Assembly: GCA_023399465.1 (NCBI GenBank)
Contig: JAEWPB010000020.1
Coordinates: 22,380 to 86,379, forward strand
DNA length: 64,000 bases
Origin: Pseudomonadota bacterium
Lineage (GTDB): Bacteria > Pseudomonadota > Alphaproteobacteria > Rhizobiales > Rhizobiaceae
Direction: 5' to 3'
The notes under the pieces are model-generated. The model searched no databases and was not told the DNA's origin. It worked only from the letters and a program-made list of their open reading frames with translations. Position 1 is the stretch's first letter. Each line of letters opens with the position of its first letter. The position numbers were made by a program, and so were the translations under genes. This document shows positions 38,012 through 59,257 of the stretch, piece by piece.

Positions 38012-38035
38012 AGTAGACAGGGCATCCTGGAACAA

Positions 38036-39030: not shown

Positions 39031-39106
39031 GGTGCTCCTCCCTTCGACAACCGAAGCTGAAGGAAGATTACACCCACCGAAACCGCGACAAAAGACGCCC
39101 CGAATG

Positions 39107-40570: not shown

Positions 40571-40812
40571 CGGCACCTCGCCGAGTGGCCCATCGCCACA
40601 CGAGAACCGTTACGTTGCAGTCGTTTCGCGCCAATTCGGGCTGCATCAGGCTCGATGGGCGGCGCGATGGGGAGACCGGGCTGCAACTTATTCATGGATT
40701 TGTCCGTTTGCGACATGGAATGGCGATTCCTCCGGTTGCCGCAAGGATTGAACGGGATTATCTCCGCGTCAATTCGCACGACAATCCCTGCCGGCGGCAG
40801 GATGAGGAACTC

Positions 40813-41444: not shown

Positions 41445-42440
41445 ATGAAGACGCTCATCGCCTCGACATTTCTCGCCACCGGTCTTCTGGCGTTGGCCGG
41501 CACGGCCCATGCCGAATGTGGCGACGTATCGATCGCCGAGATGAACTGGGCTTCAGCGGGTGTCGCCGCGCAGGTCGACAAGATCATTCTCGAAAAGGGC
41601 TACGGCTGCAATGTGACGCTGGTGACCGGCGACACGATGCCGACCTTCACCTCGATGAACGAGAAGGGCCAGCCCGACATCGCGCCGGAGATGTGGATCG
41701 ATTCCTTCCGCACGGTGCTCGACAACGCCGTCGCCGAGGGCCGGCTGATCCGCGCGGCACCGCTTTTGAGCGAGGGCGGCGTCCAGGGCTGGTGGATCCC
41801 GAAATTCATCGCCGATGCTCATCCCGACATCAAGACGGTCGAGGACGCACTGAAGCATCCCGAACTGTTTCCCGCGCCGGAGGACCCGTCCAAGGCCGCG
41901 GTGCACAACTGCCCGTCCGGATGGAGCTGCCAGGTCTCCACCGCCAACCTCTTCAAGGCGATCGGCGCCGACAATGCCGGTTTCGAACTCGTCGACCCCG
42001 GATCGGCGGCCGGCCTCGACGGCTCTATCGCCAATGCCTTCGAAAAGAAGGCCGGCTGGCTCGGTTACTACTGGGCCCCGACCGCGATCCTCGGCAAGTA
42101 CGACATGACCAAGCTCGGCTTTGGCGTCGAGTTCAACAAGAGTGAATGGGACCGCTGCACCGCGGTTGCCGATTGCGCTGCGCCCAAGGTCAATTCCTAC
42201 CCGACCGCCGGCGTTTACACGCTGGTGACCAAGGATTTCGCCGACAAGGCCGGCGTCGCGATGGATTATGTCAAGACGCGGCAATGGGACAACCAGACCG
42301 TCAGCAAGGTTCTCGCCTGGATGGACGAGAACCAGGCTTCGAACGAGGATGCCGCGAAGTACTTCCTCGAAACCTTCCCCGAACTGTGGACCGCCTGGGT
42401 ACCGGCCGATGTCGCCGCCAAGGTTCAGGGTACGCCCTGA
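41445..42440 (+). CDS. glycine betaine/proline betaine-type ABC transporter substrate-binding protein
   Basis: 331 aa with the signal peptide MKTLIASTFLATGLLALAGTAHA. Contains CGDVSIAEMNWASAGVAAQVDKIILEKGYGC, typical of OpuAC/ProX-like binding proteins. Confidence 0.8.
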   Translation: MKTLIASTFLATGLLALAGTAHAECGDVSIAEMNWASAGVAAQVDKIILEKGYGCNVTLVTGDTMPTFTSMNEKGQPDIAPEMWIDSFRTVLDNAVAEGRLIRAAPLLSEGGVQGWWIPKFIADAHPDIKTVEDALKHPELFPAPEDPSKAAVHNCPSGWSCQVSTANLFKAIGADNAGFELVDPGSAAGLDGSIANAFEKKAGWLGYYWAPTAILGKYDMTKLGFGVEFNKSEWDRCTAVADCAAPKVNSYPTAGVYTLVTKDFADKAGVAMDYVKTRQWDNQTVSKVLAWMDENQASNEDAAKYFLETFPELWTAWVPADVAAKVQGTP

Positions 42441-42604
42441 TCCGGGGTTGCGCAGCCTGACCATCTCCGCGCCTATGGAACCCAGGGGCGCGCAGGCGAG
42501 TTCATCAGTTCGGATGCGACGGGCGGCTGCAACGATGCTCGATGGCGGCCTGTCGCATGGCGGAGGGGCAACTGATGGCTTTGACCTGCAACCACCTGCC
42601 GGAA

Positions 42605-43486
42605 ATGCTGTGCAGTTTTCCGGCGATCAGCGACAGCGTCATGCGCGAAGTCAAGAAGTCGGTCGATCTCGGCTTCAAGAATCTGGTGCGCACCTACGGT
42701 GACGTACTGAACCAGGCGATGCAGCCTCTTCAGTGGTTTCTCAACTGGTTGCAGGATCTGTTCGTATCGACCCCGTGGTTCATCTTCCTGCTTGTCATGC
42801 TGGCGATCGTCTTTGTCGTCAGCCAGAGCGTCAGGATCACCCTCGGCACCGCGCTCGCGATGCTGGCGATCGGCCTGGTCGGTCTCTGGCAGGATACGAT
42901 GATCACGCTCGCCATGGTCACGGTCTGCACCGCGATCGCGGTGGTGCTCGGCATACCGATCGGCATCCTCATGGCGCGCTCGGACCGCGTACAGTCCTTC
43001 GTGAACCCGGTGCTCGACGTGATGCAGACCATGCCGAGCTTCGTCTATCTCATCCCTGTGGTGATGATCTTCGGCATCGGCAAGGTTCCGGGACTGATCG
43101 CCGTCGTCATCTATGCCGTCCCCCCGATGATCCGACTGACCAATCTCGGCATCCGGCAGGTCGACAAGGACGTGCTCGAGGCGGCCGACGCCTTCGGCTC
43201 GTCGAACCGCCAGAAGCTCCTCGACGTGCAGATCCCCCTGGCGATGCCGACGATCATGGCCGGCATCAACCAGACGATCATGATGTCGCTGGCGATGGTG
43301 GTGGTGGCGTCGATGATCGGCGTCGGCGGGCTGGGCAAGAACGTGCTGCAGGCGATCACCAACCAGTTCTTCACCATCGGTTTCCTCAACGGTTTCGCGC
43401 TCGTCGTCATCGCCATCATCTTCGACCGCACAAGCCAGGCCTATGGCCGCCGCCTGCAGAAGCACACCGCGATCATCCACGGCTGA
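42605..43486 (+). CDS. glycine betaine/proline betaine-type ABC transporter permease
   Basis: ORF 42542..43486; the start was chosen at ATG 42605 (MLCSFPAISDSVMREVKKSVDLGFKNLVRTYGD) and is uncertain. Contains the EAA-type loop LEAADAFGSSNRQKLLDVQIPLAMPTIMAG. Confidence 0.8.
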   Translation: MLCSFPAISDSVMREVKKSVDLGFKNLVRTYGDVLNQAMQPLQWFLNWLQDLFVSTPWFIFLLVMLAIVFVVSQSVRITLGTALAMLAIGLVGLWQDTMITLAMVTVCTAIAVVLGIPIGILMARSDRVQSFVNPVLDVMQTMPSFVYLIPVVMIFGIGKVPGLIAVVIYAVPPMIRLTNLGIRQVDKDVLEAADAFGSSNRQKLLDVQIPLAMPTIMAGINQTIMMSLAMVVVASMIGVGGLGKNVLQAITNQFFTIGFLNGFALVVIAIIFDRTSQAYGRRLQKHTAIIHG

Positions 43487-43585
43487 GAAATTCGGCATCG
43501 GCAGCCGGTGCCGCCGCTCTTTGCGGTTGCGCCGACATAAAGACATCTTTATATGATCATTCCAATTGAGATCGAGGATGTCGCC

Positions 43586-44599
43586 ATGACCGTCAATGCC
43601 AATCCGCTTTCCGAACTCCTGGCCGAAAAGGGCGTCCTGCTTGCGGACGGCGCCACCGGCACCAGCCTTTTCGCCATGGGCCTTGAGGCCGGCGAAGCGC
43701 CGGAGCTGTGGAACGAGGCGCATCCGGACCGGATCACCAAGCTGCACCAGGATTTCGTCGACGCCGGCGCCGACATCATCCTCACCAACACCTTCGGCGG
43801 TACCCGCCATCGCCTGAAGCTGCATCAGGCGCAGGACCGCGTCCACGACCTGAACCGCAAGGCCGCCGAAATCGCCCGCGCAGTTGCCGAAAACGCCGGT
43901 CGCAAGGTCATCGTCGCCGGTTCGGTCGGCCCGACCGGCGAACTCCTGATCCCGCTCGGCGCACTGTCCTACGAGGACGCCGTCGCGGCGTTTGCCGAAC
44001 AGATGGAAGGCCTGAAGGCTGGCGGCGTCGATATCGCCTGGATCGAGACGATGTCGTCGCCGGACGAAATCCGCGCGGCCGCTGAAGCCGCGATCAAGGT
44101 CGGCCTGCCCTACACCTATACCGGCTCCTTCGACACCGCCGGCAAGACAATGATGGGCCTGCATCCGAAGGACATCCACGGCGTTGCCGGCGAACTAGAC
44201 AGCGGACCCGTCGCCGTCGGCGCCAATTGCGGTGTCGGCGCCTCGGACATTCTCGCAAGCCTGCTCGACATGTCGAACGCCGCCCCGGATGCGACGATCA
44301 TCGTCAAGGGCAATTGTGGCATCCCCGAATTCCGCGGTTCGGAAATCTACTATTCCGGCACCCCGCCGCTGATGGCCGAATATGCCCGCCTTGCCCGCGA
44401 TGCCGGTGCCCGGATCATCGGCGGATGCTGCGGCACGTCGTGCAATCACCTGGCCGCGATGCGCGAGGCTCTCGACGGCTATACGCCGCGTCCGCGCCCG
44501 ACGCTCGAGACCATCATCGAGAAGATCGGCCCGCTGCGTAACAAGACCGCCGACGAAGCCGCCCCGGCCCGCGAACGCGGCAGCCGTCGTCGCGGCTGA
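43586..44599 (+). CDS. bmt: betaine-homocysteine S-methyltransferase-like (Hcy-binding domain, zinc Cys triad)
   Basis: ORF 43553..44599, with the ATG at 43586. Contains LLADGATGTSLF, ILTNTFGG, and the zinc ligands GANCG and IIGGCCGT of the homocysteine S-methyltransferase fold. It is single-domain with no B12 domain. Confidence 0.75.
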   Translation: MTVNANPLSELLAEKGVLLADGATGTSLFAMGLEAGEAPELWNEAHPDRITKLHQDFVDAGADIILTNTFGGTRHRLKLHQAQDRVHDLNRKAAEIARAVAENAGRKVIVAGSVGPTGELLIPLGALSYEDAVAAFAEQMEGLKAGGVDIAWIETMSSPDEIRAAAEAAIKVGLPYTYTGSFDTAGKTMMGLHPKDIHGVAGELDSGPVAVGANCGVGASDILASLLDMSNAAPDATIIVKGNCGIPEFRGSEIYYSGTPPLMAEYARLARDAGARIIGGCCGTSCNHLAAMREALDGYTPRPRPTLETIIEKIGPLRNKTADEAAPARERGSRRRG

Positions 44600-44638: not shown

Positions 44639-44711
44639 TCCAGCTTCGCACAGGCTGCCCCGCCTATCTCGCTCTGCAAGATTTTGATTATTGCATTTCA
44701 GGAGACCTTCG

Positions 44712-45059
44712 ATGCCGGGCACTTCCGCCGCCTTTCCCGACCGCGACACCGTTGCAGCCAAGCTTGCCACCCTCACCGACGCCGACGGCGCGTTCCTGAA
44801 GCTGGTGTTCGAGAACCCGCAGCAGGACGAAAATCTCCTCGAGGGCCTGAACCTTTTCCTGAACCAGGCATCCGAAGCGCCGTTCCTCAACACCCTGAAG
44901 CTGGAAAAGTGCGGCACATGGGTCGGCAGCAACGCCCCGGCCCGCCTGCAGATCCGGCTGATGGAAAGCGCCCGCTCGAGCCAGCATCCGGCCTACGCCG
45001 CCTTCCGCGCCGGCCTGACGAAGTCGGGCGGACTGGAGCAGGCCTACCCGCAGGTCTGA
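44712..45059 (+). CDS. hypothetical protein (115 aa)
   Basis: ORF 44691..45059, with the ATG at 44712 after CAGGAGA. The composition is protein-like (MPGTSAAFPDRDTVAAKLATLTDADGAFLKLVFENPQQDENLLEGLNLFLNQ...). No family was recognised. Confidence 0.5.
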   Translation: MPGTSAAFPDRDTVAAKLATLTDADGAFLKLVFENPQQDENLLEGLNLFLNQASEAPFLNTLKLEKCGTWVGSNAPARLQIRLMESARSSQHPAYAAFRAGLTKSGGLEQAYPQV

Positions 45060-45856: not shown

Positions 45857-46552
45857 TTATAGCTTCAATGCCGCCATATGGAAACGCAGTTGATCCCGGG
45901 GGTAACGGTACTCGGCTCCGACCGGGCAGGCATTGCGCGCTGCGCAGCCGCCGTCCATGCATCCCGCTTGCCCCGCTGGCGTGGCGAGATGCATCCGGCA
46001 CATACCGACATCGAACCCTTTCTCCGAGACGGCGTTCGCCGGGCAATGCGAAAGGCAGGGCCTGTCCGCGCAACCGTCGCAGGGGTGGCTGGCTGGAGAA
46101 GTCCCCGCCGGCTCCGAGATGACCTCGGCAAAGCCGAGCGCGCCGCGATAGCCGTGCCAGAGCCCGTAAACCGGATGAACGAGAATGCCGAGCGGCGAAG
46201 CCTTCAGGCCCTCGGCCTGCATCGCCCAGCGCTGGAACGGCTGCCAGGGAGGATCGGAAGGAAACCATGCGGTTGCGGCAAGATCGTTGGCGACAGGCCG
46301 GATCACGACCTTCGACCAGGTGTCTAGCGGATCGGCGCCGCCGGCATCGGCCTGCTCCTGCCGCCATCGGGTGAAGGGTTCCCAGAGCGAACCGCCGACA
46401 TTGCCGAGAAGAACAACGGAACGCGCGCGCCGGCCATCCGTGAGGTGCGGACCATCGACATCATCGCCAAGATCGACGACGCCGCGGACAAGAATTCCGT
46501 GCGGCCCGAAGACCGCACGGAGATGATCGAGAATGGCGGAACCGCGGCTCAT
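45857..46552 (-). CDS. cysteine-rich putative Fe-S protein (ferredoxin-like C-terminus)
   Basis: 231 aa. The C-terminal third has HPCDGCADRPCLSHCPANAV and CRMHLATPAGQAGCMDGGCAARNACPVG, which look like two iron-sulfur-type clusters. The N-terminal part was not recognised. Confidence 0.5.
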   Translation of the reverse strand: MSRGSAILDHLRAVFGPHGILVRGVVDLGDDVDGPHLTDGRRARSVVLLGNVGGSLWEPFTRWRQEQADAGGADPLDTWSKVVIRPVANDLAATAWFPSDPPWQPFQRWAMQAEGLKASPLGILVHPVYGLWHGYRGALGFAEVISEPAGTSPASHPCDGCADRPCLSHCPANAVSEKGFDVGMCRMHLATPAGQAGCMDGGCAARNACPVGAEYRYPRDQLRFHMAALKL

Positions 46553-46653: not shown

Positions 46654-48231
46654 TCAGGTGAACGCGTCCGGCATGGAATCCTTGCGCTCCTGGATGAACT
46701 TCAGGAGTGCCTGGTCGATTGCCGGGTCGAGTTCCGGTGCCTCGTAGTGATCGAGCCAGGTGCGGCAGAGCGCATTGGCGCGGTCCTCGATCCGCTTCTG
46801 GCCTTCGACCTCCCACTGTTCGAAGGAGTTGTTGTCGGAAATCACCGACCGGTAGAACGCCGACTGGAAGTTCGCCTGGGTATGGGCGCAGCCAAGATAG
46901 TGGCTGCCCGGGCCGACTTCACGGATCGCATCCATCGCCTGGCCGTTTTCCGACAGGTCGACGCCCTCGGCGAAACGCTGCAGCATGCCGAGCTGGTCCT
47001 GGTCGATCATGAACTTCTCGTAGGAGCTGACGAGACCGCCTTCGAGCCAGCCGGCGGCATGCAGCACGAAGTTGGTGCCGGCCAGCAGCGTGGTGTTGAG
47101 CGTATTGGAGGTCTCGTGCGCGGCCTGCGCGTCCGGAACCTTGGAGCCGCAGAGCGAGCCGCCGGTACGGAACGGCAGTCCGAGGCGGCGGGCAAGCTGT
47201 GCCGCGCCGTAGGAGACTAGCGACGGCTCCGGCGTTCCGAAGGTCGGTGCACCCGACTGCATCGAGATCGAGGCGGCGAAGGTGCCGAACAGCACCGGCG
47301 CACCCTTGCGGATAAGCTGGGTGAAGGCAGCGCCGGCGAGCACCTCGGCAAGGATCTGCGTCAGCGTACCGGCAACCGTGACCGGGCTCATCGCGCCCGA
47401 CAGGATGAACGGCGAGAGCACGCAGGCCTGGTTGTGGCGGGCGTAGACCTTGAGCGCGCCGACCATGGTCTCGTCGAAGACCATCGGCGAGTTGGCGTTG
47501 ATCAGGTTCAGCGTCACGCAGTTGTTCTCGACGAACTCGTCACCGAAAACCATCTTCGCCATGGCGATCGTGTCTTCGGCGCGCTCGGGCGCGGTGACCG
47601 AGCCCATGAACGGCTTGTCGGAATACTTGATGTGGCTGTAGACCATGTCGAGGTGGCGCTTGTTCACCGGAACATCGACCGGCTCACAGACGGTGCCGCC
47701 CGAGGAATGCATCGACGGCGCCATGTAGGAGAGCTTCACGAAATTGCGGAAGTCCTCGATGGTCGCGTAACGGCGGTTGCCGTCGAGATCGCGCACGAAG
47801 GGAGGGCCGTAGACCGGCGCGAACACTGTCGCATTTCCGCCGATCTGGACGCTGCGGGCCGGATTGCGGGCATGCCAGGTGAAGGTCGACGGTGCGGTCT
47901 TCAGCAGTTCGCGGCAAAGGCCCTTCGGGAAGCGGACGCGCTCGCCCTGCACGTCGGCGCCGGCCTGCTTCCACAATGCCAGCGCTTCGGCGTCATCGCG
48001 AAACTCGATGCCGACCTCTTCGAGGATGGTATCGGCATTGCGTTCGATCAGCTGCAGGCCTTCCTCGTCAAGGACTTCATAGACCGGGATCTTGCGCTGG
48101 ATATAGGGAAGCGAGGGGCCCGGGCCGCCGCCGGTGCGCGATGCGCGACGCGCCGCAGCTCCCCGACCTTCGCCGCGTGAACGCCGGCCGCCTTCTCCTG
48201 TGGAACCCGTCTGCTCGTTGATTTCGTCCAT
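46654..48231 (-). CDS. MttB-superfamily (trimethylamine methyltransferase family) protein, non-pyrrolysine type; putative quaternary amine:corrinoid methyltransferase
   Basis: 525-aa uninterrupted ORF with no in-frame TAG. The ATG at 48231 follows GAGGA. After an Arg/Gly-rich N-terminal 45 aa come LPYIQRKIPVYEVLDEEGLQLIERNADTILEEVGIEFRDDAEAL and the rest of the MttB TIM-barrel family pattern. Confidence 0.85.
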   Translation of the reverse strand: MDEINEQTGSTGEGGRRSRGEGRGAAARRASRTGGGPGPSLPYIQRKIPVYEVLDEEGLQLIERNADTILEEVGIEFRDDAEALALWKQAGADVQGERVRFPKGLCRELLKTAPSTFTWHARNPARSVQIGGNATVFAPVYGPPFVRDLDGNRRYATIEDFRNFVKLSYMAPSMHSSGGTVCEPVDVPVNKRHLDMVYSHIKYSDKPFMGSVTAPERAEDTIAMAKMVFGDEFVENNCVTLNLINANSPMVFDETMVGALKVYARHNQACVLSPFILSGAMSPVTVAGTLTQILAEVLAGAAFTQLIRKGAPVLFGTFAASISMQSGAPTFGTPEPSLVSYGAAQLARRLGLPFRTGGSLCGSKVPDAQAAHETSNTLNTTLLAGTNFVLHAAGWLEGGLVSSYEKFMIDQDQLGMLQRFAEGVDLSENGQAMDAIREVGPGSHYLGCAHTQANFQSAFYRSVISDNNSFEQWEVEGQKRIEDRANALCRTWLDHYEAPELDPAIDQALLKFIQERKDSMPDAFT

Positions 48232-48485
48232 GATGTATCCTCAATACCTGCGCCGGAGCGCCTTAGACGGCCTATGCTATAGGATTTCGCATATGGAACA
48301 TTCCTCAATGCGCCACGAACTTGCATAAGGCAGACATCAGCATCCGCTCAAGTGGTTAGCCCGTCGCTTTTCAATTGCTGCAACGTCGCATTCGAAAAGA
48401 ATTTTGAAGCGATTGAGGTTTAACTCTAGATGAGGCAAGTTCACTAGCGACGGCCGCAAGGCGTGCATCAACCGGGATACAGCAC

Positions 48486-49190
<705 letters not shown>

Positions 49191-49204
49191 TTATCGAACG
49201 GATG

Positions 49205-49231
49205 TTCCGCTGCGGGTCTTCCGCAGCGGAA
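49205..49231. terminator. hairpin between convergent corrinoid-protein and entericidin-like genes (TTCCGCTGCGG-N5-CCGCAGCGGAA)
   Basis: An 11-bp perfect inverted repeat read directly. There is no clear T-run on either side. Confidence 0.4.
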
Positions 49232-49240
49232 TGTCAGCCG

Positions 49241-49399
49241 TTACTGAGCCGCGTGCACGACCCGCTTGCCGGCGTTTTCAGTAGCGTTGACCGTATTGGC
49301 AGTGTCCTGCCCGATGCCTCTGATCGTGTTGGCACATCCGCCGAGCAGTGAGAGCGCAACGCATACGAGACTGATCCTGGCGATCGTCGATTTGGTCAT
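49241..49399 (-). CDS. entericidin A/B-family small lipoprotein
   Basis: ORF 49241..49453, with the ATG at 49399. The sequence MTKSTIARISLVCVALSLLGGCANTIRGIGQD carries a lipobox (LLGGC). 52 aa. Confidence 0.65.
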   Translation of the reverse strand: MTKSTIARISLVCVALSLLGGCANTIRGIGQDTANTVNATENAGKRVVHAAQ

Positions 49400-49467
49400 G
49401 ATCGGGGTCCTCTGCGATGGATATTCAATCGATGGCAATTTACGATGGTACAATGCCTGATGAACGC

Positions 49468-50067
49468 ATGACGGGCAAAAAAGTTCAAATCATCGCGTGT
49501 GGCGCCATCGCCCGCGAGATTCTCGCCGTCATCCGCCTGAACCGGCTCGACCATCTCGAACTCCAGTGCCTGCCCGCCATCCTCCACGCCCGCCCGGAAC
49601 GGATTGCACCGGCCCTCGAGGCGGCAATCTCCGAGGCCAGGGCCGGCGGCGCTACGGATATCTTCGTCGGCTATGCCGATTGCGGCACCGGCGGAGCGAT
49701 CGACCGCATCTGCGAGCGCGAGGGCATCACCCGCCTTTCGGGACCGCACTGCTACTCCTTCTTCGCCGGCAACGACGAGTTCGCCGCCCGCTGGGAAGAC
49801 GACATCACCGCCTTCTTCCTCACCGATTTCCTCGCGCGACAATTCGAAGCCTTCGTCATCGAACCGCTTGGCCTCGACCGGCACCCAGAACTGAAGGACA
49901 TGTATTTTTCCAATTACACCAAGCTGGTCTACCTCTCGCAGGAGGAAGACCCGACCCTCGAGGCCAAGGCCCGCGCGGCAGCCGACTATCTCGGCCTCCA
50001 GTATGAGTACCGCTTTACCGGTTATGGCGACCTCGGTGCGGAACTGGCCCGCGCCGGGCAGGCTTAA
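49468..50067 (+). CDS. DUF1638-like protein (family recurrently linked to corrinoid methyltransferase genes)
   Basis: ORF 49417..50067, with the ATG at 49468 (MTGKKVQIIACGAIAREILAVI...FVGYADCGTGG...). The family assignment is from memory of the sequence pattern and gene context. Confidence 0.55.
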   Translation: MTGKKVQIIACGAIAREILAVIRLNRLDHLELQCLPAILHARPERIAPALEAAISEARAGGATDIFVGYADCGTGGAIDRICEREGITRLSGPHCYSFFAGNDEFAARWEDDITAFFLTDFLARQFEAFVIEPLGLDRHPELKDMYFSNYTKLVYLSQEEDPTLEAKARAAADYLGLQYEYRFTGYGDLGAELARAGQA

Positions 50068-50145
50068 CCTTTTCTTCGATATTCCCGCCGACAGTGCGTC
50101 TTCAAGTGGCCATGCCACCGGTTTCCACGTCGAGCAATCAGGCGC

Positions 50146-50955
50146 ATGTCCGATCCCCTCCCTGAGCATTCCCGGCCCGAATTTCCCTGGCGCCAGCGCC
50201 GCGTGGTCATACTCACCGCAGGCGGCGCCAATCCGCAGATCCTGATCAACGCGCTGGCCCACCAGTTTCCCGACATCGCCGTCATTCGCGAACGCCCGGA
50301 ATCCAAGTGGACGATCCTGAAGCGTCGCGCCCGCCGTCTCGGCTGGATCGAAGCGATGGGCCAGATCGCGACCATGGTGGTCTCGCGCCTCGGAAAGAAG
50401 TTCGCCACCCGCCGCGCCGATGAAATCATCGAAGAGTACGGGCTGTCGACGAAGATCGATCCGGCAATCCCGGTCCACGACGTTTTATCGGTCAACGACC
50501 CGGCCTGCCTTGCCGCAATCGGGAAGCTCCAGCCCGCAGTCGTTGTCGTCCTCAGCACCCGCCTGCTGAGCGGCGAGACGCTTGCCCGCATTCCCTGCCC
50601 GGTGATCAACTTCCACGCCGGGGTCAATCCCGGCTATCGCGGCCAGATGGGCGGCTACTGGGCGCTGGTGAACGGCGATCCGGAGAATTTCGGCGCCACG
50701 GTCCATCTCGTTGATACCGGCGTCGACACCGGCGCGACCCTCCATGTCCAGAAGGTCACACCGTCCAGAAGCGATACGATGCTGACCTATCCGCTGCTCC
50801 TGACCGCCGCCTCGACCGGCATCGCGATCCGCGCCGTCGACGACGTGCTCGCCGGCCGGATGCGTCCTTATGCGCCTGAAGGACCGTCGAAAATGCACTA
50901 CAATCCGGCGGTCTGGACGTGGCTCCGGCATGGATTGACAAAACGCATCTGGTAA
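50146..50955 (+). CDS. formyltransferase-fold protein (PurN/Fmt N-terminal domain family)
   Basis: 269 aa with INFHAGVNPGYRGQMG and VHLVDTGVDTGATL, matching the HxSLLPxxRG and DxGxDxG patterns of folate-dependent formyltransferases. Confidence 0.7.
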   Translation: MSDPLPEHSRPEFPWRQRRVVILTAGGANPQILINALAHQFPDIAVIRERPESKWTILKRRARRLGWIEAMGQIATMVVSRLGKKFATRRADEIIEEYGLSTKIDPAIPVHDVLSVNDPACLAAIGKLQPAVVVVLSTRLLSGETLARIPCPVINFHAGVNPGYRGQMGGYWALVNGDPENFGATVHLVDTGVDTGATLHVQKVTPSRSDTMLTYPLLLTAASTGIAIRAVDDVLAGRMRPYAPEGPSKMHYNPAVWTWLRHGLTKRIW

Positions 50956-51052
50956 TTTTTCGCCGCGTCGCTTTTCGCCGCATGCGACGTCGTGGCGAGC
51001 CAAGTCCCCACCCCGCCAGACGTGCAATCTGCGCGAAAGAGGAGAATTCGCC

Positions 51053-51355
51053 ATGGCGGATCGCATTGTCGTATACTGGCGGGACATCCCCGCGCAGGTG
51101 ATCATCAAACAGGGGCGCAAGACCGCCAAGCGCGAACTGTCGCTGCGCTTCACCGAGGCGATCGACATGTGCGCCATGCGCACCGGCGCCGCCGAGACCG
51201 ACGACTATCTCGCCGAGTGGCGCAAGGCCGATCCGGTTCCGGTATCGGACGATCTCGAGGCGGAGGCAGACAAGGCTGCCGCCGAGCTGGAAGCGGCCTA
51301 TGACAAGGAGCGTCTCGTCACGCTGGTCAAGGCCGGAGGACGCGACAATGGCTGA
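51053..51355 (+). CDS. small conserved protein (100 aa), tentatively the family annotated as 'virulence factor' that accompanies MTHFR_C genes
   Basis: An ATG after AGAGGAGA, with sequence MADRIVVYWRDIPAQVIIKQGRKTAKRELSLRFTEAIDMCAMR... Its stop overlaps the next gene's start. The family name is recalled from memory and not verified. Confidence 0.6.
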   Translation: MADRIVVYWRDIPAQVIIKQGRKTAKRELSLRFTEAIDMCAMRTGAAETDDYLAEWRKADPVPVSDDLEAEADKAAAELEAAYDKERLVTLVKAGGRDNG

Positions 51356-51932
51356 GCCGAAGGTCGTAACCGGCAATGCCGCGCCCGCCAAGAAGTCGGC
51401 TACCGGCGCCTTTACGCCTGCCGGGGTATCGCCGAGCCGGCGCGCCCGCCACAAATATACGGTGCGTCTCTGGGCGGTGCGCCACTCGCGCTTTCTCGAG
51501 TGGTTCTACAGCCGCTTCGCCGACACCTTCCTGCTGCTCCATCCGCTGTGGAAGAAGATCGGCTACCAGCGTGTTGAGCGTCCGGTCACCTTCGTCGAGC
51601 GCCACGTCAAGGGCTTCCTTTTCGACTGTCGCATGTGCGGCCAGTGCGCCCTGTCCTCGACCGGCATGTCCTGCCCGATGAACTGTCCGAAGCAGTTGCG
51701 CAACGGCCCCTGCGGCGGCGTGCGCGCCAACGGCAACTGCGAGGTCGAGCCCGACATGCCCTGCGTCTGGGTGCAGGCGTGGAAGGGCTCGCAGAACATG
51801 GTGAAGGGCGACGCGATCATGAACGTGCAGAAGCCGGTCAACCAGTCGCTGCGCGAGACCTCGTCCTGGCTGCGCGTGACCGCCGAAGCCGCAGCGGCCC
51901 GCGAAGCCGCCGAGAAGGAAAGAAACGCATGA
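51348..51932 (+). CDS. methylenetetrahydrofolate reductase C-terminal-domain (MetV-like, Cys-rich) protein
   Basis: ORF 51300..51932, with the ATG at 51348. The cysteine cluster is FDCRMCGQCALSSTGMSCPMNCPKQLRNGPCGGVRANGNCE. Its stop overlaps the MTHFR start (ATGA). Confidence 0.7.
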   Translation: MAEPKVVTGNAAPAKKSATGAFTPAGVSPSRRARHKYTVRLWAVRHSRFLEWFYSRFADTFLLLHPLWKKIGYQRVERPVTFVERHVKGFLFDCRMCGQCALSSTGMSCPMNCPKQLRNGPCGGVRANGNCEVEPDMPCVWVQAWKGSQNMVKGDAIMNVQKPVNQSLRETSSWLRVTAEAAAAREAAEKERNA

Positions 51933-53020
51933 GCCCCGATATCAATCCGCACGATCCCGGCGCTCCGCTCGATCCGCTGCCCGGCCACTCCTCGCGCGGT
52001 CGCCTCGAACGCGTTCTCCGGCGCGGCGAATTCGCCGTTACGGCCGAACTCAATCCGCCCGACAGCGCCAATCCGCAGGACGTCTATGAACGCGCCGCGA
52101 TCTTCGACGGCTGGGTGGACGGCATCAACGCCGTCGATGCCTCTGGCGCAAACTGCCACATGTCATCTGTCGGCATCTGCGCGCTGCTGACCCGCATGGG
52201 CTACGCGCCGATCATGCAGATCGCCTGCCGCGACAAGAACCGCATCGCCATCCAGGGCGACGTCCTCGGCGCATCGGCCATGGGCGTGCAGAACATCATG
52301 TGCCTGACCGGTGACGGCGTCCAGGCCGGCGACCAACCCGGCGCCAAGCCGGTCTTCGACCTCGACTGCATGTCGCTGCTCGAAACCGTGCGCATCATGC
52401 GCGACAATTCCAAGTTCCTTTCCGGTCGCAAGCTGACGACGCCGCCGCAGGTCTTCCTCGGCGCGGCGATCAACCCCTTTGCCCCGCCCTACGACTTCCG
52501 CCCCTACCGGCTCGCCAAGAAGATCGAGGCCGGCGCCCAGTTCGTCCAGAGCCAGTACTGCTTCGACGTTCCGATGTTCCGCGAATACATGAAGAAGGTC
52601 CGCGACCTCGGCCTGCACGAGAAATGCTTCATCCTCGTCGGTGTCGGCCCGATGGCGTCGGCCAAGACCGCGAAGTGGATCCGCTCCAACGTTCCCGGCA
52701 TCCACATTCCCGATGCGGTGATCAAGCGCCTCGAAGGCGCGGAGGACCAGAAGAAGGAAGGCAAGCAGCTCTGCATCGACATCATCAACGAGGTGAAGGA
52801 GATCGAGGGCGTTTCCGGCATTCACGTCATGGCCTACCGCCAGGAAGAGTATGTCGCCGAGATCGTCCACGAATCCGGCGTGCTGAAGGGCCGCAAGCCC
52901 TGGAAGCGCGAGGCCAACCCGGTCGACAGCATGATCGCCGAACGCCTCGAGCAGTTGCGCGAGGGCAAGGAAGAAAACCAGCAGCAGATGGCGGAGATCG
53001 CCGCCCATCATCAGCCGTGA
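51929..53020 (+). CDS. methylenetetrahydrofolate reductase (MetF-like)
   Basis: ORF 51635..53020, with the ATG at 51929. Contains FAVTAELNPPDS, the MetF TIM-barrel pattern IMQIACRDKNRIAIQGDVLGA, and AGAQFVQSQYCFD. Confidence 0.8.
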   Translation: MSPDINPHDPGAPLDPLPGHSSRGRLERVLRRGEFAVTAELNPPDSANPQDVYERAAIFDGWVDGINAVDASGANCHMSSVGICALLTRMGYAPIMQIACRDKNRIAIQGDVLGASAMGVQNIMCLTGDGVQAGDQPGAKPVFDLDCMSLLETVRIMRDNSKFLSGRKLTTPPQVFLGAAINPFAPPYDFRPYRLAKKIEAGAQFVQSQYCFDVPMFREYMKKVRDLGLHEKCFILVGVGPMASAKTAKWIRSNVPGIHIPDAVIKRLEGAEDQKKEGKQLCIDIINEVKEIEGVSGIHVMAYRQEEYVAEIVHESGVLKGRKPWKREANPVDSMIAERLEQLREGKEENQQQMAEIAAHHQP

Positions 53021-53117
53021 ACAGCTACCTGAACGACAAGGCGGCGGAAGCGCTCCACCTTGTATCGGACAACCCGGCGCGATAGACCAACCTCAGCGCC
53101 TGACCAGAGGACCATAA

Positions 53118-54086
53118 ATGACCCGCACCATCGTTGCTTCCGCCACCCGCGAAATCGTGATCGGCTTCGACCAGCCGTTTTGCGTCATCGGCGAGCGCAT
53201 CAATCCGACCGGCCGCAAGAAGCTGGCGGCGGAAATGATCGAGGGCAATTTCGAAACCGTCATCAAGGACGCGCTGGAACAGGTTGCCGCCGGTGCCACG
53301 ATGCTCGACGTCAACGCCGGCGTGACCTCGGTCAACCCGAACGAGACCGAGCCGGGCCTGCTCGTTCAAACCATGGAAATCGTCCAGGGTCTGGTCGACG
53401 TGCCGCTGTCGATCGACAGTTCGGTCACGGCCGCCATCGAGGCCGCTCTGAAAGTCGCCAAGGGCCGTCCGCTGGTCAATTCGGTCACCGGCGAGGAGGA
53501 AAAGCTCGAGGCCATCCTGCCGCTGTGCAAGAAGTACGACGTGCCGGTTGTCGCCATCTCCAACGACGAGACCGGCATTTCCATGGACCCGGATGTGCGT
53601 TTCGCCGTTGCCAAGAAGATCGTCGAGCGCGCCATGGACTACGGCATCAAGCCGCACGACGTCGTCGTCGACCCGCTGGTCATGCCGATCGGCGCCCTTG
53701 GCGATGCCGGTCGCCAGGTGTTCGCGCTGCTGCGCCGCCTACGCGACGAACTCAAGGTCAACACCACCTGCGGGCTTTCCAACATCTCCTTCGGCCTGCC
53801 GCATCGCCATGGCATCAATGCCGGCTTCATCCCGATGGTCATCGGCGCCGGCATGACGTCCGCGATCATGAACCCCTGCCGTCCGCAGGAAATGGAAGCG
53901 GTGCGCGCCGCCAACGTACTGAACGGCACCGACGCCAACTGCACCAACTGGATCATGACCTATCGCGATCACAAGCCCGCCGAAGCCGGTGCCGGTGCTG
54001 CTCCGGTCGCAGCAGCGCCAGCGGCTGGAGGCGGTCGTCGCGGCGGCCGCGCAGCCCGTGCCGGCGCCGGCGCCCGCTCGGAATAA
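53118..54086 (+). CDS. pterin-binding methyltransferase (methyl-corrinoid:tetrahydrofolate, MtgA/AcsE/MtrH-like)
   Basis: 322 aa with FCVIGERINPTGRKKLAAEM and MLDVNAGV, the dihydropteroate synthase-like pterin-binding fold. Confidence 0.8.
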   Translation: MTRTIVASATREIVIGFDQPFCVIGERINPTGRKKLAAEMIEGNFETVIKDALEQVAAGATMLDVNAGVTSVNPNETEPGLLVQTMEIVQGLVDVPLSIDSSVTAAIEAALKVAKGRPLVNSVTGEEEKLEAILPLCKKYDVPVVAISNDETGISMDPDVRFAVAKKIVERAMDYGIKPHDVVVDPLVMPIGALGDAGRQVFALLRRLRDELKVNTTCGLSNISFGLPHRHGINAGFIPMVIGAGMTSAIMNPCRPQEMEAVRAANVLNGTDANCTNWIMTYRDHKPAEAGAGAAPVAAAPAAGGGRRGGRAARAGAGARSE

Positions 54087-54289
54087 CATACCGCGTGCCG
54101 GCATCTGCCGGACGACTACCGTCAGATCACCTTGCGCTGCCCGCAAGGTGATCTTTGCATGTCGGGAATTGACCATCGTCAAACCCGTTTCGGATGCAGA
54201 CTGACGCCAGCACCCGGAGATCGCCCCGCCACAGGCGGCGATCTCCGATCCCGGCCATCGGGTCCTGTCCCGGAGGAGACATTTTGGAA

Positions 54290-56368
54290 ATGCGCATCGA
54301 AGGCACGTCAGAGAACCAGAGCACCATGAGCGAAGCTCCTGAAAAAGATCCCCTCGTCCTGTTCATGCCATCCGGCAAGCGCGGCCGCTTTCCGGTCGGC
54401 ACACCGGTCCTCGATGCGGCACGCCAGCTCGGCGTCTATGTCGAAAGCGTGTGCGGCGGACGCGCCACCTGCGGCCGCTGTCAGATCGAGGTGCAGGAAG
54501 GCAATTTCGCCAAGCACAAGATCGTCTCGTCGCTCGACCACATCTCGGAAAAGGGCCCCAAGGAAGAACGCTACGAGAAGATCCGCGGCCTGCCCGAAGG
54601 CCGACGCCTGTCCTGCTCGGCCCAGATCCTGGGCGACCTCGTCGTCGACGTGCCGCAGGATACCGTCATCAATGCGCAGGTGGTCCGCAAGGCGGCGAGC
54701 GATCGCGTCATCGAGCGCAACGCCGCCATCCAGCTCTGCTATGTCGAGGTCGACGAGCCCGACATGCACAAGCCGCTCGGCGATCTCGACCGCCTGAAGG
54801 TCATGCTCGAAAAGGACTGGGGCTTCAAGGACCTGCTGGTCGCACCCCACCTGATCCCGCAGGTGCAGGGCATCCTGCGCAAGGGCAACTGGGGCGTCAC
54901 CGCTGCCATCCATCGCGACATGGATTCCTCTCGTCCGTTCATCGTCGGCCTGTGGCCCGGCCTCAAGAACGAGGCTTACGGCATCGCCTGCGACATCGGC
55001 TCGACGACGATCGCCATGCATCTCGTGTCGCTTTTGTCCGGCCGCATCGTCGGCTCCTCGGGCACCTCGAACCCGCAGATACGCTTCGGCGAGGATCTGA
55101 TGAGCCGCGTTTCCTACGTGATGATGAACCCCGACGGACGCGAGGCCATGACCAAGGCCGTGCGCGAGGCCGTCAACGGGCTGATCGCCAAGGTCTGCGA
55201 GGAAGGCGAAGTCGACCGCCACGACATCCTCGACGCGGTGTTCGTCGCCAACCCGATCATGCACCATCTGTTCCTCGGCATCGATCCGACCGAACTCGGC
55301 CAGGCGCCGTTTGCGCTCGCCGTCTCCGGCGCGCTTCAATACTGGGCCCATGACATCGACATCGAGGTCAATCGCGGCGGCCGCGTCTACATGCTCCCCT
55401 GCATCGCCGGCCATGTCGGCGCCGACGCAGCAGGCGCCACGCTGTCCGAGGGACCCTATCGCCAGGACCAGATGATGCTGCTCGTCGATGTCGGCACCAA
55501 CGCTGAAATCGTGCTCGGCAACAAGGATCGCGTCGTCGCGGCTTCGTCGCCGACCGGCCCCGCCTTCGAGGGCGCGGAAATCTCCTCCGGCCAGCGCGCC
55601 GCCCCCGGCGCCATCGAGCGCGTGCGCATCGATCCGGTGACGCTGGAGCCGCGCTTCCGCGTCATCGGCGTCGACAAGTGGTCGGACGAGGAAGGCTTCT
55701 ACGATGATGCCGCCGCGGTCGGCGTCACCGGAATCTGCGGCTCGGCCGTCATCGAGGTCGTCGCCGAGATGTACCTCGCGGGGATCATCTCGGAAGACGG
55801 CGTCGTCGACGGCGCGATGGCGGCGCGCAGCCCGCGCATCATCGCGAACGGCCGCACCTTCTCCTACCTGCTGCATGACGGCGAGCCGCGCATCACGGTG
55901 ACGCAGAACGACATCCGCGCCATCCAGCTGGCCAAGGCCGCGCTTTACGCCGGCATCAAGCTGTTGATGGAGAAGCAGGGCGTCGAGCATGTCGATACCA
56001 TCCGCTTCGCCGGCGCCTTCGGCTCGTTCATCGATCCGAAATACGCCATGGTGCTCGGCCTCATCCCGGATTGCGATCTCGCCGAGGTCAAGGCGGTCGG
56101 CAACGCCGCCGGCACCGGCGCGCTGATGGCGCTGCTCAACCGCGATCACCGCCGCGAGATCGAAACCGTGGTCAACCGGATCGAAAAGATCGAGACCGCG
56201 CTGGAGCCGAATTTCCAGCAACTCTTCGTCAACGCCATGGCACTGCCGAACAAGGTGGACGCCTTCCCGGAACTCGCCAAGGTCGTCACCCTGCCGGAAC
56301 GCAAGCTCCTCAGCGACGACGGCGGTGGCGAGGGCGGTGGTCGCCGTCGCCGGCGCAGCCGCGAATAG
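54290..56368 (+). CDS. corrinoid reductive activase (RACo-like): [2Fe-2S] ferredoxin domain + ASKHA ATPase domain
   Basis: ORF 54194..56368. The start is ATG 54290 (after GGAGGAG) or ATG 54326. Contains the plant-type ferredoxin motif CGGRATCGRCQIEV and the ASKHA/DUF4445-type core (IACDIGSTTIAMHLV, LLVDVGTNAEIVLG). Confidence 0.8.
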   Translation: MRIEGTSENQSTMSEAPEKDPLVLFMPSGKRGRFPVGTPVLDAARQLGVYVESVCGGRATCGRCQIEVQEGNFAKHKIVSSLDHISEKGPKEERYEKIRGLPEGRRLSCSAQILGDLVVDVPQDTVINAQVVRKAASDRVIERNAAIQLCYVEVDEPDMHKPLGDLDRLKVMLEKDWGFKDLLVAPHLIPQVQGILRKGNWGVTAAIHRDMDSSRPFIVGLWPGLKNEAYGIACDIGSTTIAMHLVSLLSGRIVGSSGTSNPQIRFGEDLMSRVSYVMMNPDGREAMTKAVREAVNGLIAKVCEEGEVDRHDILDAVFVANPIMHHLFLGIDPTELGQAPFALAVSGALQYWAHDIDIEVNRGGRVYMLPCIAGHVGADAAGATLSEGPYRQDQMMLLVDVGTNAEIVLGNKDRVVAASSPTGPAFEGAEISSGQRAAPGAIERVRIDPVTLEPRFRVIGVDKWSDEEGFYDDAAAVGVTGICGSAVIEVVAEMYLAGIISEDGVVDGAMAARSPRIIANGRTFSYLLHDGEPRITVTQNDIRAIQLAKAALYAGIKLLMEKQGVEHVDTIRFAGAFGSFIDPKYAMVLGLIPDCDLAEVKAVGNAAGTGALMALLNRDHRREIETVVNRIEKIETALEPNFQQLFVNAMALPNKVDAFPELAKVVTLPERKLLSDDGGGEGGGRRRRRSRE

Positions 56369-56439: not shown

Positions 56440-57333
56440 TCAGGCCGCGAGCGCCATCTCGCCGAAAGCTTCGCGGATGCTCTCCGCAACGATCCTGACC
56501 GGATCGGAAAACTTCTGCGGCGTCAGCAGGCGAATGTCGAAGCCGCCGAGTTCGGGCAAGCCATCGCGTTCGCCGAGAATCCGCATCTCATCGGTGACAT
56601 AGGACCGCGGCATGGGTGCCACCGCCAGGTCCGAGATGACCGCCGCGCGCTGGGCCATGGTATGGCCGCTGAGATAGGCAACCCGGTAGGCGCGCTTGCT
56701 CTTTTCCAGTTGCGCCAGAGCTTCGCTGCGCCAGATGCAGCCCTCCTCCCAGATCGAGATCGGCAGCGGGTCCTTGCGATGCGCGGTGCCGCATTTCGCT
56801 CCCACCCACACGAGCCGCTCGCGGAAGACCACTTCCCCGCCCGACGGCACTGACCGGCTGGCGCAATTGATCAGGGCCAGGTCGAGGCGCTGCTCCTCCA
56901 TCCGCCGGCGGAGGCCCGCGCTCATGTCGATGGTCACGTCGACGGTGATCCCCGGGCAGATGTCGGCAAACCGCCTGAGAACGCTCGGCAGCAGCCGCTC
57001 GCCGATATCTTCCGGCGCGCCAAGGCGCACGACGCCGCTCAGTTCGGGAATGATGAAGCGCGATACCGCCTCGTTCGACAATTGCAGCATCCGCCGCGCA
57101 TAGGAGAGCAGGACTTCACCGCCCTGGGTCAGCGTGACCGAACGCGCGTCGCGCAGGAACAGCACGGTGTTCAGCTGCTCCTCAAGCTTCTTGATCTGCA
57201 TGGAAACCGCCGAGGGCGTACGATAGACCGCCTCCGCCGCGGTGGAGAAATTGCCGGTCTCCGCAATCGCCACGAAGGTCCTGAGAACGTCGTTGTCGAG
57301 CAGAGGCAAGGGCTGGCGAAAGGTGACGGTCAT
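56440..57333 (-). CDS. LysR-family transcriptional regulator
   Basis: ORF 56440..57414, with the ATG at 57333. Contains the N-terminal wHTH LRTFVAIAETGNFSTAAEAVYRTPSAVSMQIKKLEEQL. Confidence 0.85.
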   Translation of the reverse strand: MTVTFRQPLPLLDNDVLRTFVAIAETGNFSTAAEAVYRTPSAVSMQIKKLEEQLNTVLFLRDARSVTLTQGGEVLLSYARRMLQLSNEAVSRFIIPELSGVVRLGAPEDIGERLLPSVLRRFADICPGITVDVTIDMSAGLRRRMEEQRLDLALINCASRSVPSGGEVVFRERLVWVGAKCGTAHRKDPLPISIWEEGCIWRSEALAQLEKSKRAYRVAYLSGHTMAQRAAVISDLAVAPMPRSYVTDEMRILGERDGLPELGGFDIRLLTPQKFSDPVRIVAESIREAFGEMALAA

Positions 57334-57452
57334 GGCGCTATCTTTCACTTTTATTGATCCTATGCACCATATCATTTCATTTGATTGAAAGTCAATTCGG
57401 ACGGACAATGGCAATCATCGAAGCAGATCGGAAGCGTGGAAGGAGAATTGCA

Positions 57453-58019: not shown

Positions 58020-58237
58020 CTGATCTCGCATTGCACAATTAGTATTATTTCTCAATCAGTTGCAGAAACAATACCAACTACGGCCGCAGTGGTCGCCGCC
58101 ATGCTGCGACCGTCATTGGCGCAAGCTGAATTTGCCCCTCACAGACGCAATTTGCCATGCAAATGTCGCATTTGGAACACCGAATATGGTTGTTCCAAGA
58201 GAGGATCACCTACCCTCCTCGAGCATGGGCAACCCAC

Positions 58238-59257
58238 ATGAGCAAAGCGCCTGCCAAGAAACGTTCCCTGGTCTTCTTCCTCGTTCCGCATTTTTCCATG
58301 CTGCCCTTTTCCGCGGCAATTGAAACCTTGCGCATTGCCAACCGCATGCTCGGCTACAACGCCTATGAATGGCGCCTGGCGTCGGTCGATGGCCAGAAGA
58401 TCAATTCCTCGAGCGGTATCAGCATCGAGGTCAATTCGTCGCTTGCCGAGGAGCGGCGCTATCTTGGCGGCGAAAATCGCCCGAACATGGTGCTCGTCTG
58501 TTCGGGGGTCTATGTCGAGGAATTCAACAACAAGTCGGTCAATGCCTGGCTGCGCGAGGTCTACAACCGCGGCGTCGCCGTCGGCAGCCTCTGTACCGGC
58601 GCCCATATCCTGGCCCAGGCCGGCCTCCTGAACGGCAAGCGCTGCGCCATCCACTGGGAAAACCTTCCGGGCTTTGCCGAAGCCTTCCCGCAGGCCGAGG
58701 TCTATGCCGATCTCTACGAGGTCGACAGCAATCTCTACACCTGCGCCGGCGGCACCGCTTCGCTCGACATGATGCTGAACCTGATCGGCCAGGATTTCGG
58801 CGAGAACCTCGTCAACAGGATCTGCGAACAGGCGCTCACCGATCGCGTCCGCAGCGCCAACGACCGCCAGCGCCTGCCGCTTCGCGCCCGCCTCGGCGTC
58901 CAGAATTCCAAGGTGCTGTCGATCATCGAACTGATGGAGAGCAATCTCGCCGAGCCGTTGTCGCTGCTCGAGATCGCTGATAGCGCCGGCCTTTCGCGCC
59001 GCCAGATCGAGCGCCTGTTCCGCCAGGAGATGGGACGCTCCCCTGCCCGATACTATCTCGAGATCCGGCTCGACCGCGCCCGCCACCTTCTCGTCCAGTC
59101 GGCAATGCCGGTGGTCGAAGTCGCGGTCGCCTGCGGCTTCGTCTCGGCCTCGCATTTTTCCAAGTGTTATCGCGAACTGTACAACCGCTCGCCGCAGCAG
59201 GAACGCGCAGAACGCAAGATCACGATGGCGACGGCACGGACTGGCGTCGTCGTCTGA
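58238..59257 (+). CDS. GlxA-family (DJ-1/PfpI + AraC HTH) transcriptional regulator, GbdR/CdhR-like architecture
   Basis: ORF 58157..59257, with the ATG at 58238. The N-terminal domain has SLVFFLVPHFSMLPFSAAIETLRIAN and SLCTGAHILAQAGLLNGKRCAIHWE. The C-terminal AraC HTH has LSLLEIADSAGLSRRQIERLFRQEMGRSPARYY. Confidence 0.8.
   Translation: MSKAPAKKRSLVFFLVPHFSMLPFSAAIETLRIANRMLGYNAYEWRLASVDGQKINSSSGISIEVNSSLAEERRYLGGENRPNMVLVCSGVYVEEFNNKSVNAWLREVYNRGVAVGSLCTGAHILAQAGLLNGKRCAIHWENLPGFAEAFPQAEVYADLYEVDSNLYTCAGGTASLDMMLNLIGQDFGENLVNRICEQALTDRVRSANDRQRLPLRARLGVQNSKVLSIIELMESNLAEPLSLLEIADSAGLSRRQIERLFRQEMGRSPARYYLEIRLDRARHLLVQSAMPVVEVAVACGFVSASHFSKCYRELYNRSPQQERAERKITMATARTGVVV

Follow-up and report, generated by a model that had tools for sequence, protein, structure and literature searches.

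A probable MtgBCDE-type cobalamin-dependent methyltransferase system encoded beside cobalamin synthesis genes in a Rhizobiaceae genome

Gene content and organization of the mttB locus

The DNA analyzed in this study is a 64-kb stretch (hereafter, the window) of contig JAEWPB010000020.1 in the assembly GCA_023399465.1, covering positions 22,380 to 86,379, and its subject is a group of genes for corrinoid-dependent methyl transfer arranged around a gene of the MttB superfamily (mttB). Genes were assigned from a program-made list of open reading frames (ORFs) in combination with Pfam and NCBIfam scans of the 64-kb window. The locus contains the following features (ABC, ATP-binding cassette; Fe-S, iron-sulfur; THF, tetrahydrofolate; MTHFR, methylenetetrahydrofolate reductase; HTH, helix-turn-helix).

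41445..42440, plus strand: OpuAC binding protein of a betaine-type ABC transporter (PF04069)
42542..43486, plus strand: permease of a betaine-type ABC transporter (PF00528)
43553..44599, plus strand: Bmt/MtgE, homocysteine-binding S-methyltransferase module (PF02574; NF005718)
45857..46552, minus strand: FdxL, Fe-S protein of 231 aa with a CblC/MMACHC-like predicted fold, 101 bp downstream of mttB
46654..48231, minus strand: mttB, MttB-superfamily protein of the non-pyrrolysine, MtgB-like type, putative glycine betaine:corrinoid methyltransferase (PF06253, 525 aa)
48363..48393, plus strand: direct repeat GTCGC-N17-GTCGCNTTC, candidate operator, in the mttB-mtgC intergenic alignment block
48486..49190, plus strand: MtgC, corrinoid (cobalamin-binding) protein with a DxHxxG motif (PF02607 and PF02310)
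49417..50067, plus strand: DUF1638 protein, putative corrinoid-reactivation accessory (PF07796, E 7e-28)
50146..50955, plus strand: Formyl_trans_N-family protein (PF00551, E 1e-13; weak PurN, Fmt, and PurU matches)
51053..51355, plus strand: small PF13769 ('Virulence_fact') protein (E 3e-27), overlapping the MetV-like gene by 8 bp
51348..51932, plus strand: MetV-like Cys-rich MTHFR partner (MTHFR_C; PF12225, E 6e-28)
51929..53020, plus strand: MTHFR of the MetF/MetF2 type (PF02219, E 1e-33), start MSPDINPH
53118..54086, plus strand: MtgD, putative pterin-binding methyl-corrinoid:THF methyltransferase (PF00809, E 1e-27; NF005719)
54326..56368, plus strand: RACo/RamA-like ATP-dependent reductive activase, [2Fe-2S] plus ASKHA (four RACo domains), in an ORF open from 54194
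58157..59257, plus strand: GbdR-like regulator of the GlxA family (DJ-1/PfpI and AraC HTH, Pfam domains)

An earlier note on this DNA, prepared from the letters and ORF translations, had described the 525-aa product of mttB as free of in-frame amber codons. The ORF is indeed uninterrupted over 525 codons, and its product matched PF06253 end to end (777 bits, profile positions 3-500 of 500), placing it in the MttB superfamily; as there is no in-frame UAG, the protein contains no pyrrolysine. The mttB and mtgC genes are divergent, with 254 bp between them. The DxHxxG motif noticed earlier in the divergently transcribed corrinoid protein appears as GDIHDIG in the MtgC translation, together with B12-binding_2 and B12-binding domains, and the best NCBIfam matches of this protein were the MtgC models, below their cutoffs. 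The pterin-binding methyltransferase reported on the mtgC strand corresponds to MtgD, which matched NF005719 with 397 bits (cutoff, 259), and Bmt matched NF005718 with 569 bits (cutoff, 338).

The pairing of an MTHFR with a Cys-rich partner was likewise borne out by the PF02219 and PF12225 matches. The two genes share a 4-bp ATGA overlap and are translationally coupled, as in the MetFV type. The proposed RACo-type activase has all four RACo domains, namely Fer2 (PF00111), RACo_linker (PF17650), Raco_middle (PF17651), and RACo_C_ter (PF14574), and matched the AcsV model of NCBIfam with an E-value of 6e-115. The true start of the RACo gene is likely at 54326, not at 54194.

Additionally, the DUF1638, Formyl_trans_N, PF13769, LysR-family regulator, and FdxL genes had been overlooked in the earlier note. 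The AlphaFold2 model of the DUF1638 protein (predicted local distance difference test, pLDDT, 75; predicted template-modeling score, pTM, 0.50) gave only heterogeneous alpha/beta matches in Foldseek (E > 0.03, TM < 0.33). The Formyl_trans_N protein matched no specific equivalog. INFH...VDTGVDTG motifs are visible in its translation, and the catalytic N-x-H and Asp motifs known from formyl-THF enzymes are retained; its assignment as a 10-formyl-THF hydrolase or transferase, with a PurU-like role in one-carbon (C1) oxidation, would be speculative.

Upstream, the earlier note had placed a betaine-type ABC transporter and a betaine-homocysteine methyltransferase (BHMT). The binding protein, the permease, and Bmt were found there, but no homolog of an ABC ATPase gene was present beside them or anywhere in the 64-kb window. 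The GbdR-like regulator that it had placed downstream had GbdR as its best NCBIfam match, although the score of 355 bits was lower than the cutoff of 480; thus, the protein is GbdR-like and not a confirmed equivalog.

Conservation of the locus

In a scan of species-representative genomes, at least 580 stretches encoded a relative of MttB, and the best 80 of these were analyzed together with the Sinorhizobium meliloti locus (81 loci in total). The MttB orthologs of the best 80 were 73-91% identical at the amino acid level and belonged mostly to Hyphomicrobiales, with some from Kiloniellales and Inquilinus. In Paracoccus (78-79%) and Azoarcus (68%), the orthologs were carried on plasmids.

The 81 loci were searched with the window proteins. 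MtgC was encoded at 70 of them, divergently from mttB in every case (70/70; median distance between starts, approximately 295 bp), and FdxL at 65, invariably on the mttB strand (65/65; median gap, approximately 108 bp). The DUF1638 protein was found at 61 loci, the PF13769 protein at 59, MtgD at 57, RACo at 53, Bmt at 53 (within 10 kb of mttB), MetV at 49, MetF at 48, and the formyltransferase-like protein at 38. Because the same neighbors recur around orthologous mttB genes at 81 loci of other species, the gene arrangement is not due to chance. In particular, there is on a plasmid of Paracoccus aminovorans a compact RACo-MtgD-MetF-MetV-DUF1638-MtgC cluster divergent from MttB-FdxL, and the Paracoccus cluster is adjoined by a GlxA/GbdR-like regulator that is 72% identical to that of the window.

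The window was syntenic with Shinella and Sinorhizobium chromosomes in megablast comparisons. No genome in the database was closer than approximately 82% over the methyltransferase cluster, indicating that the source is a Rhizobiaceae species unrepresented at the species level. The DNA identity to Shinella and Sinorhizobium was approximately 85% over the methyltransferase cluster versus approximately 78% over the cobalamin synthesis (cob) genes.

Family placement and substrate-contact residues of MttB

In a BLAST-type alignment, MttB was 89% identical to the protein of PDB entry 4YYC, which is titled "putative trimethylamine methyltransferase" and which we take to be the S. meliloti protein. 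According to the earlier note, tight clustering with an already characterized enzyme of identical context would remove the novelty of the locus. The identity to 4YYC in an identical context goes in that direction, but the 4YYC protein has no assigned substrate. Against TIGR02369, the equivalog model of the pyrrolysine-containing trimethylamine (TMA) methyltransferase, MttB scored 281 bits, which is lower than the cutoff of 525, and its alignment scores were 133 bits to Methanosarcina MttB versus 416 bits to MtgB.

MttB is 44% identical to the MtgB of Desulfitobacterium hafniense (2QNE/9YCE), in which glycine betaine is contacted by Y97 and F356 through cation-pi interactions and by R312 and H348 at the carboxylate (JBC 2026, PMC13080624). 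In a HMMER alignment to 9YCE, Y97, F356, R312, and H348 corresponded to Y141, G399, R355, and H391 of the window protein; that is, three of the four contacts are kept. Y141, R355, and H391 were invariant in the 81 orthologs, so that the carboxylate site (R312/H348) is retained throughout, whereas the position of F356 was occupied by G399 in all 81 and the aromatic pair is not retained. W395, four residues before G399, was also invariant (81/81), and D. hafniense MtgB has Ile at this position. The W395/G399 combination in place of Ile/Phe, a large-for-small exchange at a spacing of one helical turn, might restore the cation cage.

MttB residues 1-45 form an Arg/Gly-rich N-terminal extension of approximately 45 residues, which D. 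hafniense MtgB does not have. As tblastn matches started at approximately query residues 31-43, most related loci conserve the extension poorly or lack it.

FdxL, an Fe-S protein encoded beside mttB

Homologs of FdxL are annotated elsewhere merely as 'ferredoxin'. The sequence contains two C-terminal [4Fe-4S]-type Cys motifs, preceded by an unassigned N-terminal portion of approximately 150 residues. FdxL itself had no match in Pfam, PF16690 included, and sequence and profile searches of the PDB recognized nothing beyond the generic ferredoxin motif. An AlphaFold2 model based on 38 homologs (pLDDT 83, pTM 0.79) was compared with the PDB by using Foldseek, and all of the top 50 matches were CblC/MMACHC, QueG, or reductive dehalogenases, with modest statistics (E 9e-4 to 0.1, TM 0.35-0.51). 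CblC/MMACHC, QueG, and the reductive dehalogenase RdhA belong to a class of B12 enzymes whose cobalamin-binding core is nitroreductase-like.

When 1.84 billion cluster representatives were searched with a profile, 1774 members of the FdxL family were obtained. Among 107 diverse representatives, 49 matched PF16690 (MMACHC) below the threshold (best E 2e-4) and none above it, and this model was matched by more representatives than any ferredoxin model. The fold search and these sub-threshold Pfam matches together link FdxL to CblC. Several members of the family carry an XRE-type HTH domain fused at the N terminus, suggesting that the FdxL domain is capable of ligand sensing.

We tentatively propose, with rather less than even confidence, that FdxL may be a bacterial processor of the CblC/MMACHC type with two [4Fe-4S] clusters, which would remove or reduce the upper ligand on freshly synthesized cobalamin and load MtgC. 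The CobO-dependent route delivers an adenosylated corrinoid. If the proposal is true, FdxL would provide an oxygen-exposed corrinoid methyltransferase with a dedicated step of B12 tailoring and loading, by analogy with human CblC, which feeds methionine synthase. QueG and RdhA likewise have two [4Fe-4S]-type motifs after the core but are much larger than FdxL, and CblC itself has no Fe-S clusters. FdxL is mentioned in neither of the two papers on MtgBCD discussed below, and no account of a bacterial CblC-like Fe-S protein turned up in our search of the literature.

Relation to the MtgBCDE system and proposed mechanism

The window has all the domain types of MtgB, MtgC, MtgD, and MtgE, as well as RACo, DUF1638, and MetF2, of the aerobic MtgBCDE system, and it is syntenic with the S. 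meliloti locus named MtgBCDE by Mausz et al. (PNAS 2025, PMC12478193). In that study, mtgC and mtgD mutants of Ruegeria pomeroyi no longer grew on glycine betaine and were no longer prototrophic for methionine, and MtgB homologs, MetF2, RamA, DUF1638, and cobalamin-synthesis proteins were increased on N-osmolytes. MtgC, MtgD, and MtgE (Bmt) were described as a split methionine synthase, the Bmt of S. meliloti was reinterpreted as the MtgE module, and MtgBCDE was stated to be colocalized in S. meliloti with the cob operon and the pair of reactivation modules (PMC12478193). The earlier note had treated Bmt, under the name BHMT, as mere context.

In Phaeobacter inhibens, mtgB1, mtgC, and gbcAB mutants have been constructed, the mtgB1 gbcAB double mutant did not grow on glycine betaine, and glycine betaine increased cobalamin production 25-fold (Hammer et al., bioRxiv 10.64898/2025.12.19.695462). 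Both mtgBCD and gbcAB are present in S. meliloti (bioRxiv 10.64898/2025.12.19.695462). A three-part B12-dependent methionine synthase of P. inhibens, consisting of PF02574, PF00809, and corrinoid proteins, had been described previously; RamA-like and DUF1638 proteins were required for this split MetH, and S. meliloti carries both despite a complete MetH (Price et al. 2018, PMC5764234). The 2025 mutants of R. pomeroyi and P. inhibens overtake the premise of the earlier note that non-pyrrolysine MttB homologs had been characterized from strict anaerobes only. The methyl-transfer reading of that note is sound, but its premise of novelty is out of date. A corrinoid methyl-transfer module beside B12 synthesis genes in an aerobic rhizobial chromosome, and its inferred mechanism, are already published. 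For S. meliloti SMc0433x/0434x, no experiments on betaine catabolism were found in our search of the literature.

Taken together, the locus is probably a rhizobial MtgBCDE-type cobalamin-dependent methyltransferase system that acts as a glycine betaine demethylase and as a split methionine synthase. By homology, the MtgB-like enzyme would transfer a methyl group from a quaternary amine with a carboxylate group, likeliest glycine betaine, to Co(I)-MtgC, yielding dimethylglycine and CH3-Co(III)-MtgC. MtgD would then pass the methyl group from CH3-Co(III)-MtgC to THF in a reversible reaction, giving CH3-THF and Co(I)-MtgC, and MetF with the MetV-like partner and the PF13769 protein may convert CH3-THF to CH2=THF for C1 oxidation or assimilation. 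Alternatively, Bmt/MtgE would use CH3-Co(III)-MtgC and homocysteine to form methionine, with MtgC and MtgD running in reverse. RACo would return Co(II) to Co(I) with ATP through its [2Fe-2S] and ASKHA parts, with DUF1638 as a possible second helper; FdxL might process or load cobalamin; and expression is probably controlled by the GbdR-like regulator. The route from an amine through methyl-Co(III) and methyl-THF to methylene-THF, as drawn in the earlier note, agrees with the homology, the synteny, and the literature, as do reductive reactivation with ATP and a cofactor supply encoded next to it, but the module is also anabolic, as a split methionine synthase.

Alternative explanations

Glycine betaine is moderately favored as the substrate of MttB, because the carboxylate site and one aromatic residue are conserved, because this paralog alone pairs with mtgC, bmt, a betaine-type binding protein, and a GbdR-like regulator, and because the S. 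meliloti gene is labeled MtgB in the published assignment. Several observations weigh against this assignment and against the MtgBCDE reading as a whole. Phe is replaced by Gly at the F356 position in every ortholog, the identity to the proven MtgB of D. hafniense (44%) is no higher than that to some paralogs, and alphaproteobacterial paralogs, which presumably differ in specificity, are 46-59% identical to the window MttB. Orthology to roseobacter MtgB1 is putative, being based on the component set and the literature; a search from an ortholog in a 'Rhodobacteraceae' metagenome-assembled genome found relatives only in Phyllobacteriaceae (Hyphomicrobiales) and Paracoccus, and none in roseobacters. 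Furthermore, S. meliloti also has MetH and GbcAB, so the physiological weight of the system there is uncertain. The same machinery might accordingly serve an MttB specific for proline betaine (stachydrine), carnitine, gamma-butyrobetaine, choline/phosphocholine, or trigonelline. This alternative is unlikely, as is a carboxylated quaternary amine other than glycine betaine, although the G399/W395 variant possibly marks a substrate such as the stachydrine of legumes. The aromatic pair is likewise unconserved in aligned MttB-family enzymes for other quaternary amines (PMC13080624), and up to seven MttB paralogs occur per genome and are expected to use other substrates via the same MtgC (PMC12478193). 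However, Y141 and the carboxylate residues R355 and H391 are conserved, the cage could be rebuilt as described above, and it is this paralog that is paired with mtgC, bmt, and the GbdR-like regulator across orders, whereas other paralogs lie elsewhere, beside their own transporters and oxidoreductases. In the one distant-paralog example examined, neither MtgC nor FdxL was encoded alongside, and such paralogs probably use a corrinoid protein encoded elsewhere. This example, on a Mesorhizobium plasmid (locus L083, 981-11251), comprises an MttB paralog of 59% identity, two large FAD-dependent oxidoreductases, and a complete betaine/proline/choline ABC transporter.

It is very improbable that the cluster is essentially an anabolic, housekeeping split methionine synthase, made up of MtgC, MtgD, and Bmt/MtgE and accompanied by its reactivation proteins, to which MttB contributes little. 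The frequent presence of Bmt near mttB is in keeping with such a role, but the MetH of S. meliloti is already complete with its own reactivation domain, and mttB, with its high amino acid identity among orthologs, is the tightest-linked partner of mtgC, as seen in the 70 divergent pairs. In addition, the MTHFR gene is embedded in the cluster, and the MetF2 of R. pomeroyi was the top differentially synthesized protein on all three N-osmolytes tested and was proposed to oxidize methyl-THF (PMC12478193); these two points indicate a catabolic flux. Least probable of all is a methyltransferase system for TMA or another methylamine, or a chloromethane (cmu-like) pathway. The name of the PF06253 family and the GenBank annotation 'trimethylamine methyltransferase family protein' suggest the former, and MetF2 and PurU, which are also components of the chloromethane (cmu) pathway, the latter. 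MtgC also groups near CmuA corrinoid domains (PMC12478193). Nevertheless, no CmuA-type fused methyltransferase-corrinoid protein is present, MttB aligned far better with MtgB than with Methanosarcina MttB, and D. hafniense MtgB does not use TMA, dimethylamine, or monomethylamine. We rejected both the TMA methyltransferase and the chloromethane readings on the lack of an in-frame UAG and the low TIGR02369 score.

Regulatory signals and neighboring genes

The direct repeat GTCGC-N17-GTCGCNTTC upstream of mtgC lies in a conserved block of the intergenic alignment and occurs once in the window. In 21 Rhizobiaceae loci, GTCGC-N17-GTCGC was found once per locus and always in the mttB-mtgC intergenic region. 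The intergenic region of Paracoccus did not contain it, indicating that it is restricted by lineage. From this pattern, the repeat is a candidate binding site for a regulator. In a scan of positions 43000-59500, sigma-70 promoter and terminator sites were no more numerous than in shuffled sequence.

The remaining features of the window are as follows.

11991..40576: cobalamin biosynthesis and cobalt uptake region, CobN-type aerobic route (Pfam assignments)
36431..36801, minus strand: cobalamin riboswitch ahead of cbtA (Rfam match)
44691..45059, plus strand: ORF of 122 aa with no family match, downstream of bmt
56440..57414, minus strand: LysR-family regulator, convergent with the RACo gene (PF00126 and PF03466)

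The adjacent B12 synthesis and cobalt uptake genes, put at about 25 kb in the earlier note, extend over approximately 28 kb. They include cbiB, a cobC/D-type aminotransferase gene, cobB, several TP_methylase genes, genes for CbiD, a CbiG-methylase fusion, CbiC, and CbiX, as well as cobO, cobN, cobW, cbtA, and cobQ. Control of the mtg cluster by a B12 riboswitch was rejected, the only Rfam match in the window being the one upstream of cbtA. Unrelated genes within the cob region (18064-19083, minus strand, and 26853-29261) encode an inosine-uridine nucleoside hydrolase, a zinc-type alcohol dehydrogenase, a TauE/SafE exporter, and an EamA transporter. Homologs of the 122-aa ORF were found near bmt in 27 of the 81 loci.

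At the left end of the window (4032-9106, minus strand) are genes for a lipid A acyltransferase, a Zn-dehydrogenase, two ketoacyl synthases, and a FabA-like dehydratase. We take this set to be the cluster for the very-long-chain fatty acid of lipid A that is typical of Rhizobiaceae chromosomes, and its presence supports a chromosomal rhizobial origin of the window.

Implications and comparison with known systems

The locus is real and complete and, apart from FdxL, represents an already known system; the proposals on this system date from 2025, and the window adds another ortholog to them. MtgBCDE would allow glycine betaine to be demethylated without, or alongside, a working betaine monooxygenase and would tie this demethylation to methionine synthesis and B12 supply. 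For rhizobia, the "second glycine betaine demethylation pathway" that Barra et al. (2006) are said to have inferred would thereby be resolved. Betaine has long been known to stimulate B12 overproduction in industrial Ensifer/"Pseudomonas denitrificans" strains, and the system could underlie this stimulation. FdxL, in turn, could be a new component of B12 handling.

The roseobacters R. pomeroyi (strain DSS-3) and P. inhibens (strain DSM 17395) have the same component set, the same proposed dual role, and the same link to cobalamin synthesis, but their mtg genes are scattered, whereas those of the window and S. meliloti are clustered beside the cob genes. The clustered version adds FdxL, the formyltransferase-like gene, and PF13769, none of which is discussed in the two MtgBCD papers. 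The S. meliloti cluster (bmt SMc04325 to SMc0433x-0434x) shows the same gene order and orientation as the window at approximately 85% nucleotide identity, including the arrangement of the PF13769 gene. It differs in the insertion of two entericidin genes, a BA14K gene, and hypothetical genes, in having more genes between bmt and mttB, and in having an ABC ATPase gene at the corresponding locus.

Among anaerobes, MtgB, MtgC, and MtgA of D. hafniense, which carry out methyl transfer from glycine betaine to THF, follow the same three-component logic, with Y97, R312, and H348 conserved in the window. D. hafniense is, however, a strict anaerobe without a methionine-synthase link, the residue corresponding to its F356 is Gly in the window, and its corrinoid protein is phylogenetically distinct (PMC12478193). 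In Eubacterium limosum, several MttB paralogs (MtpB, MtcB, MtyB, and MthB) share one corrinoid protein, but these enzymes act on other substrates in an anaerobic acetogen; they conserve R312, with H348 less so, and lack the aromatic pair for glycine betaine (PMC13080624).

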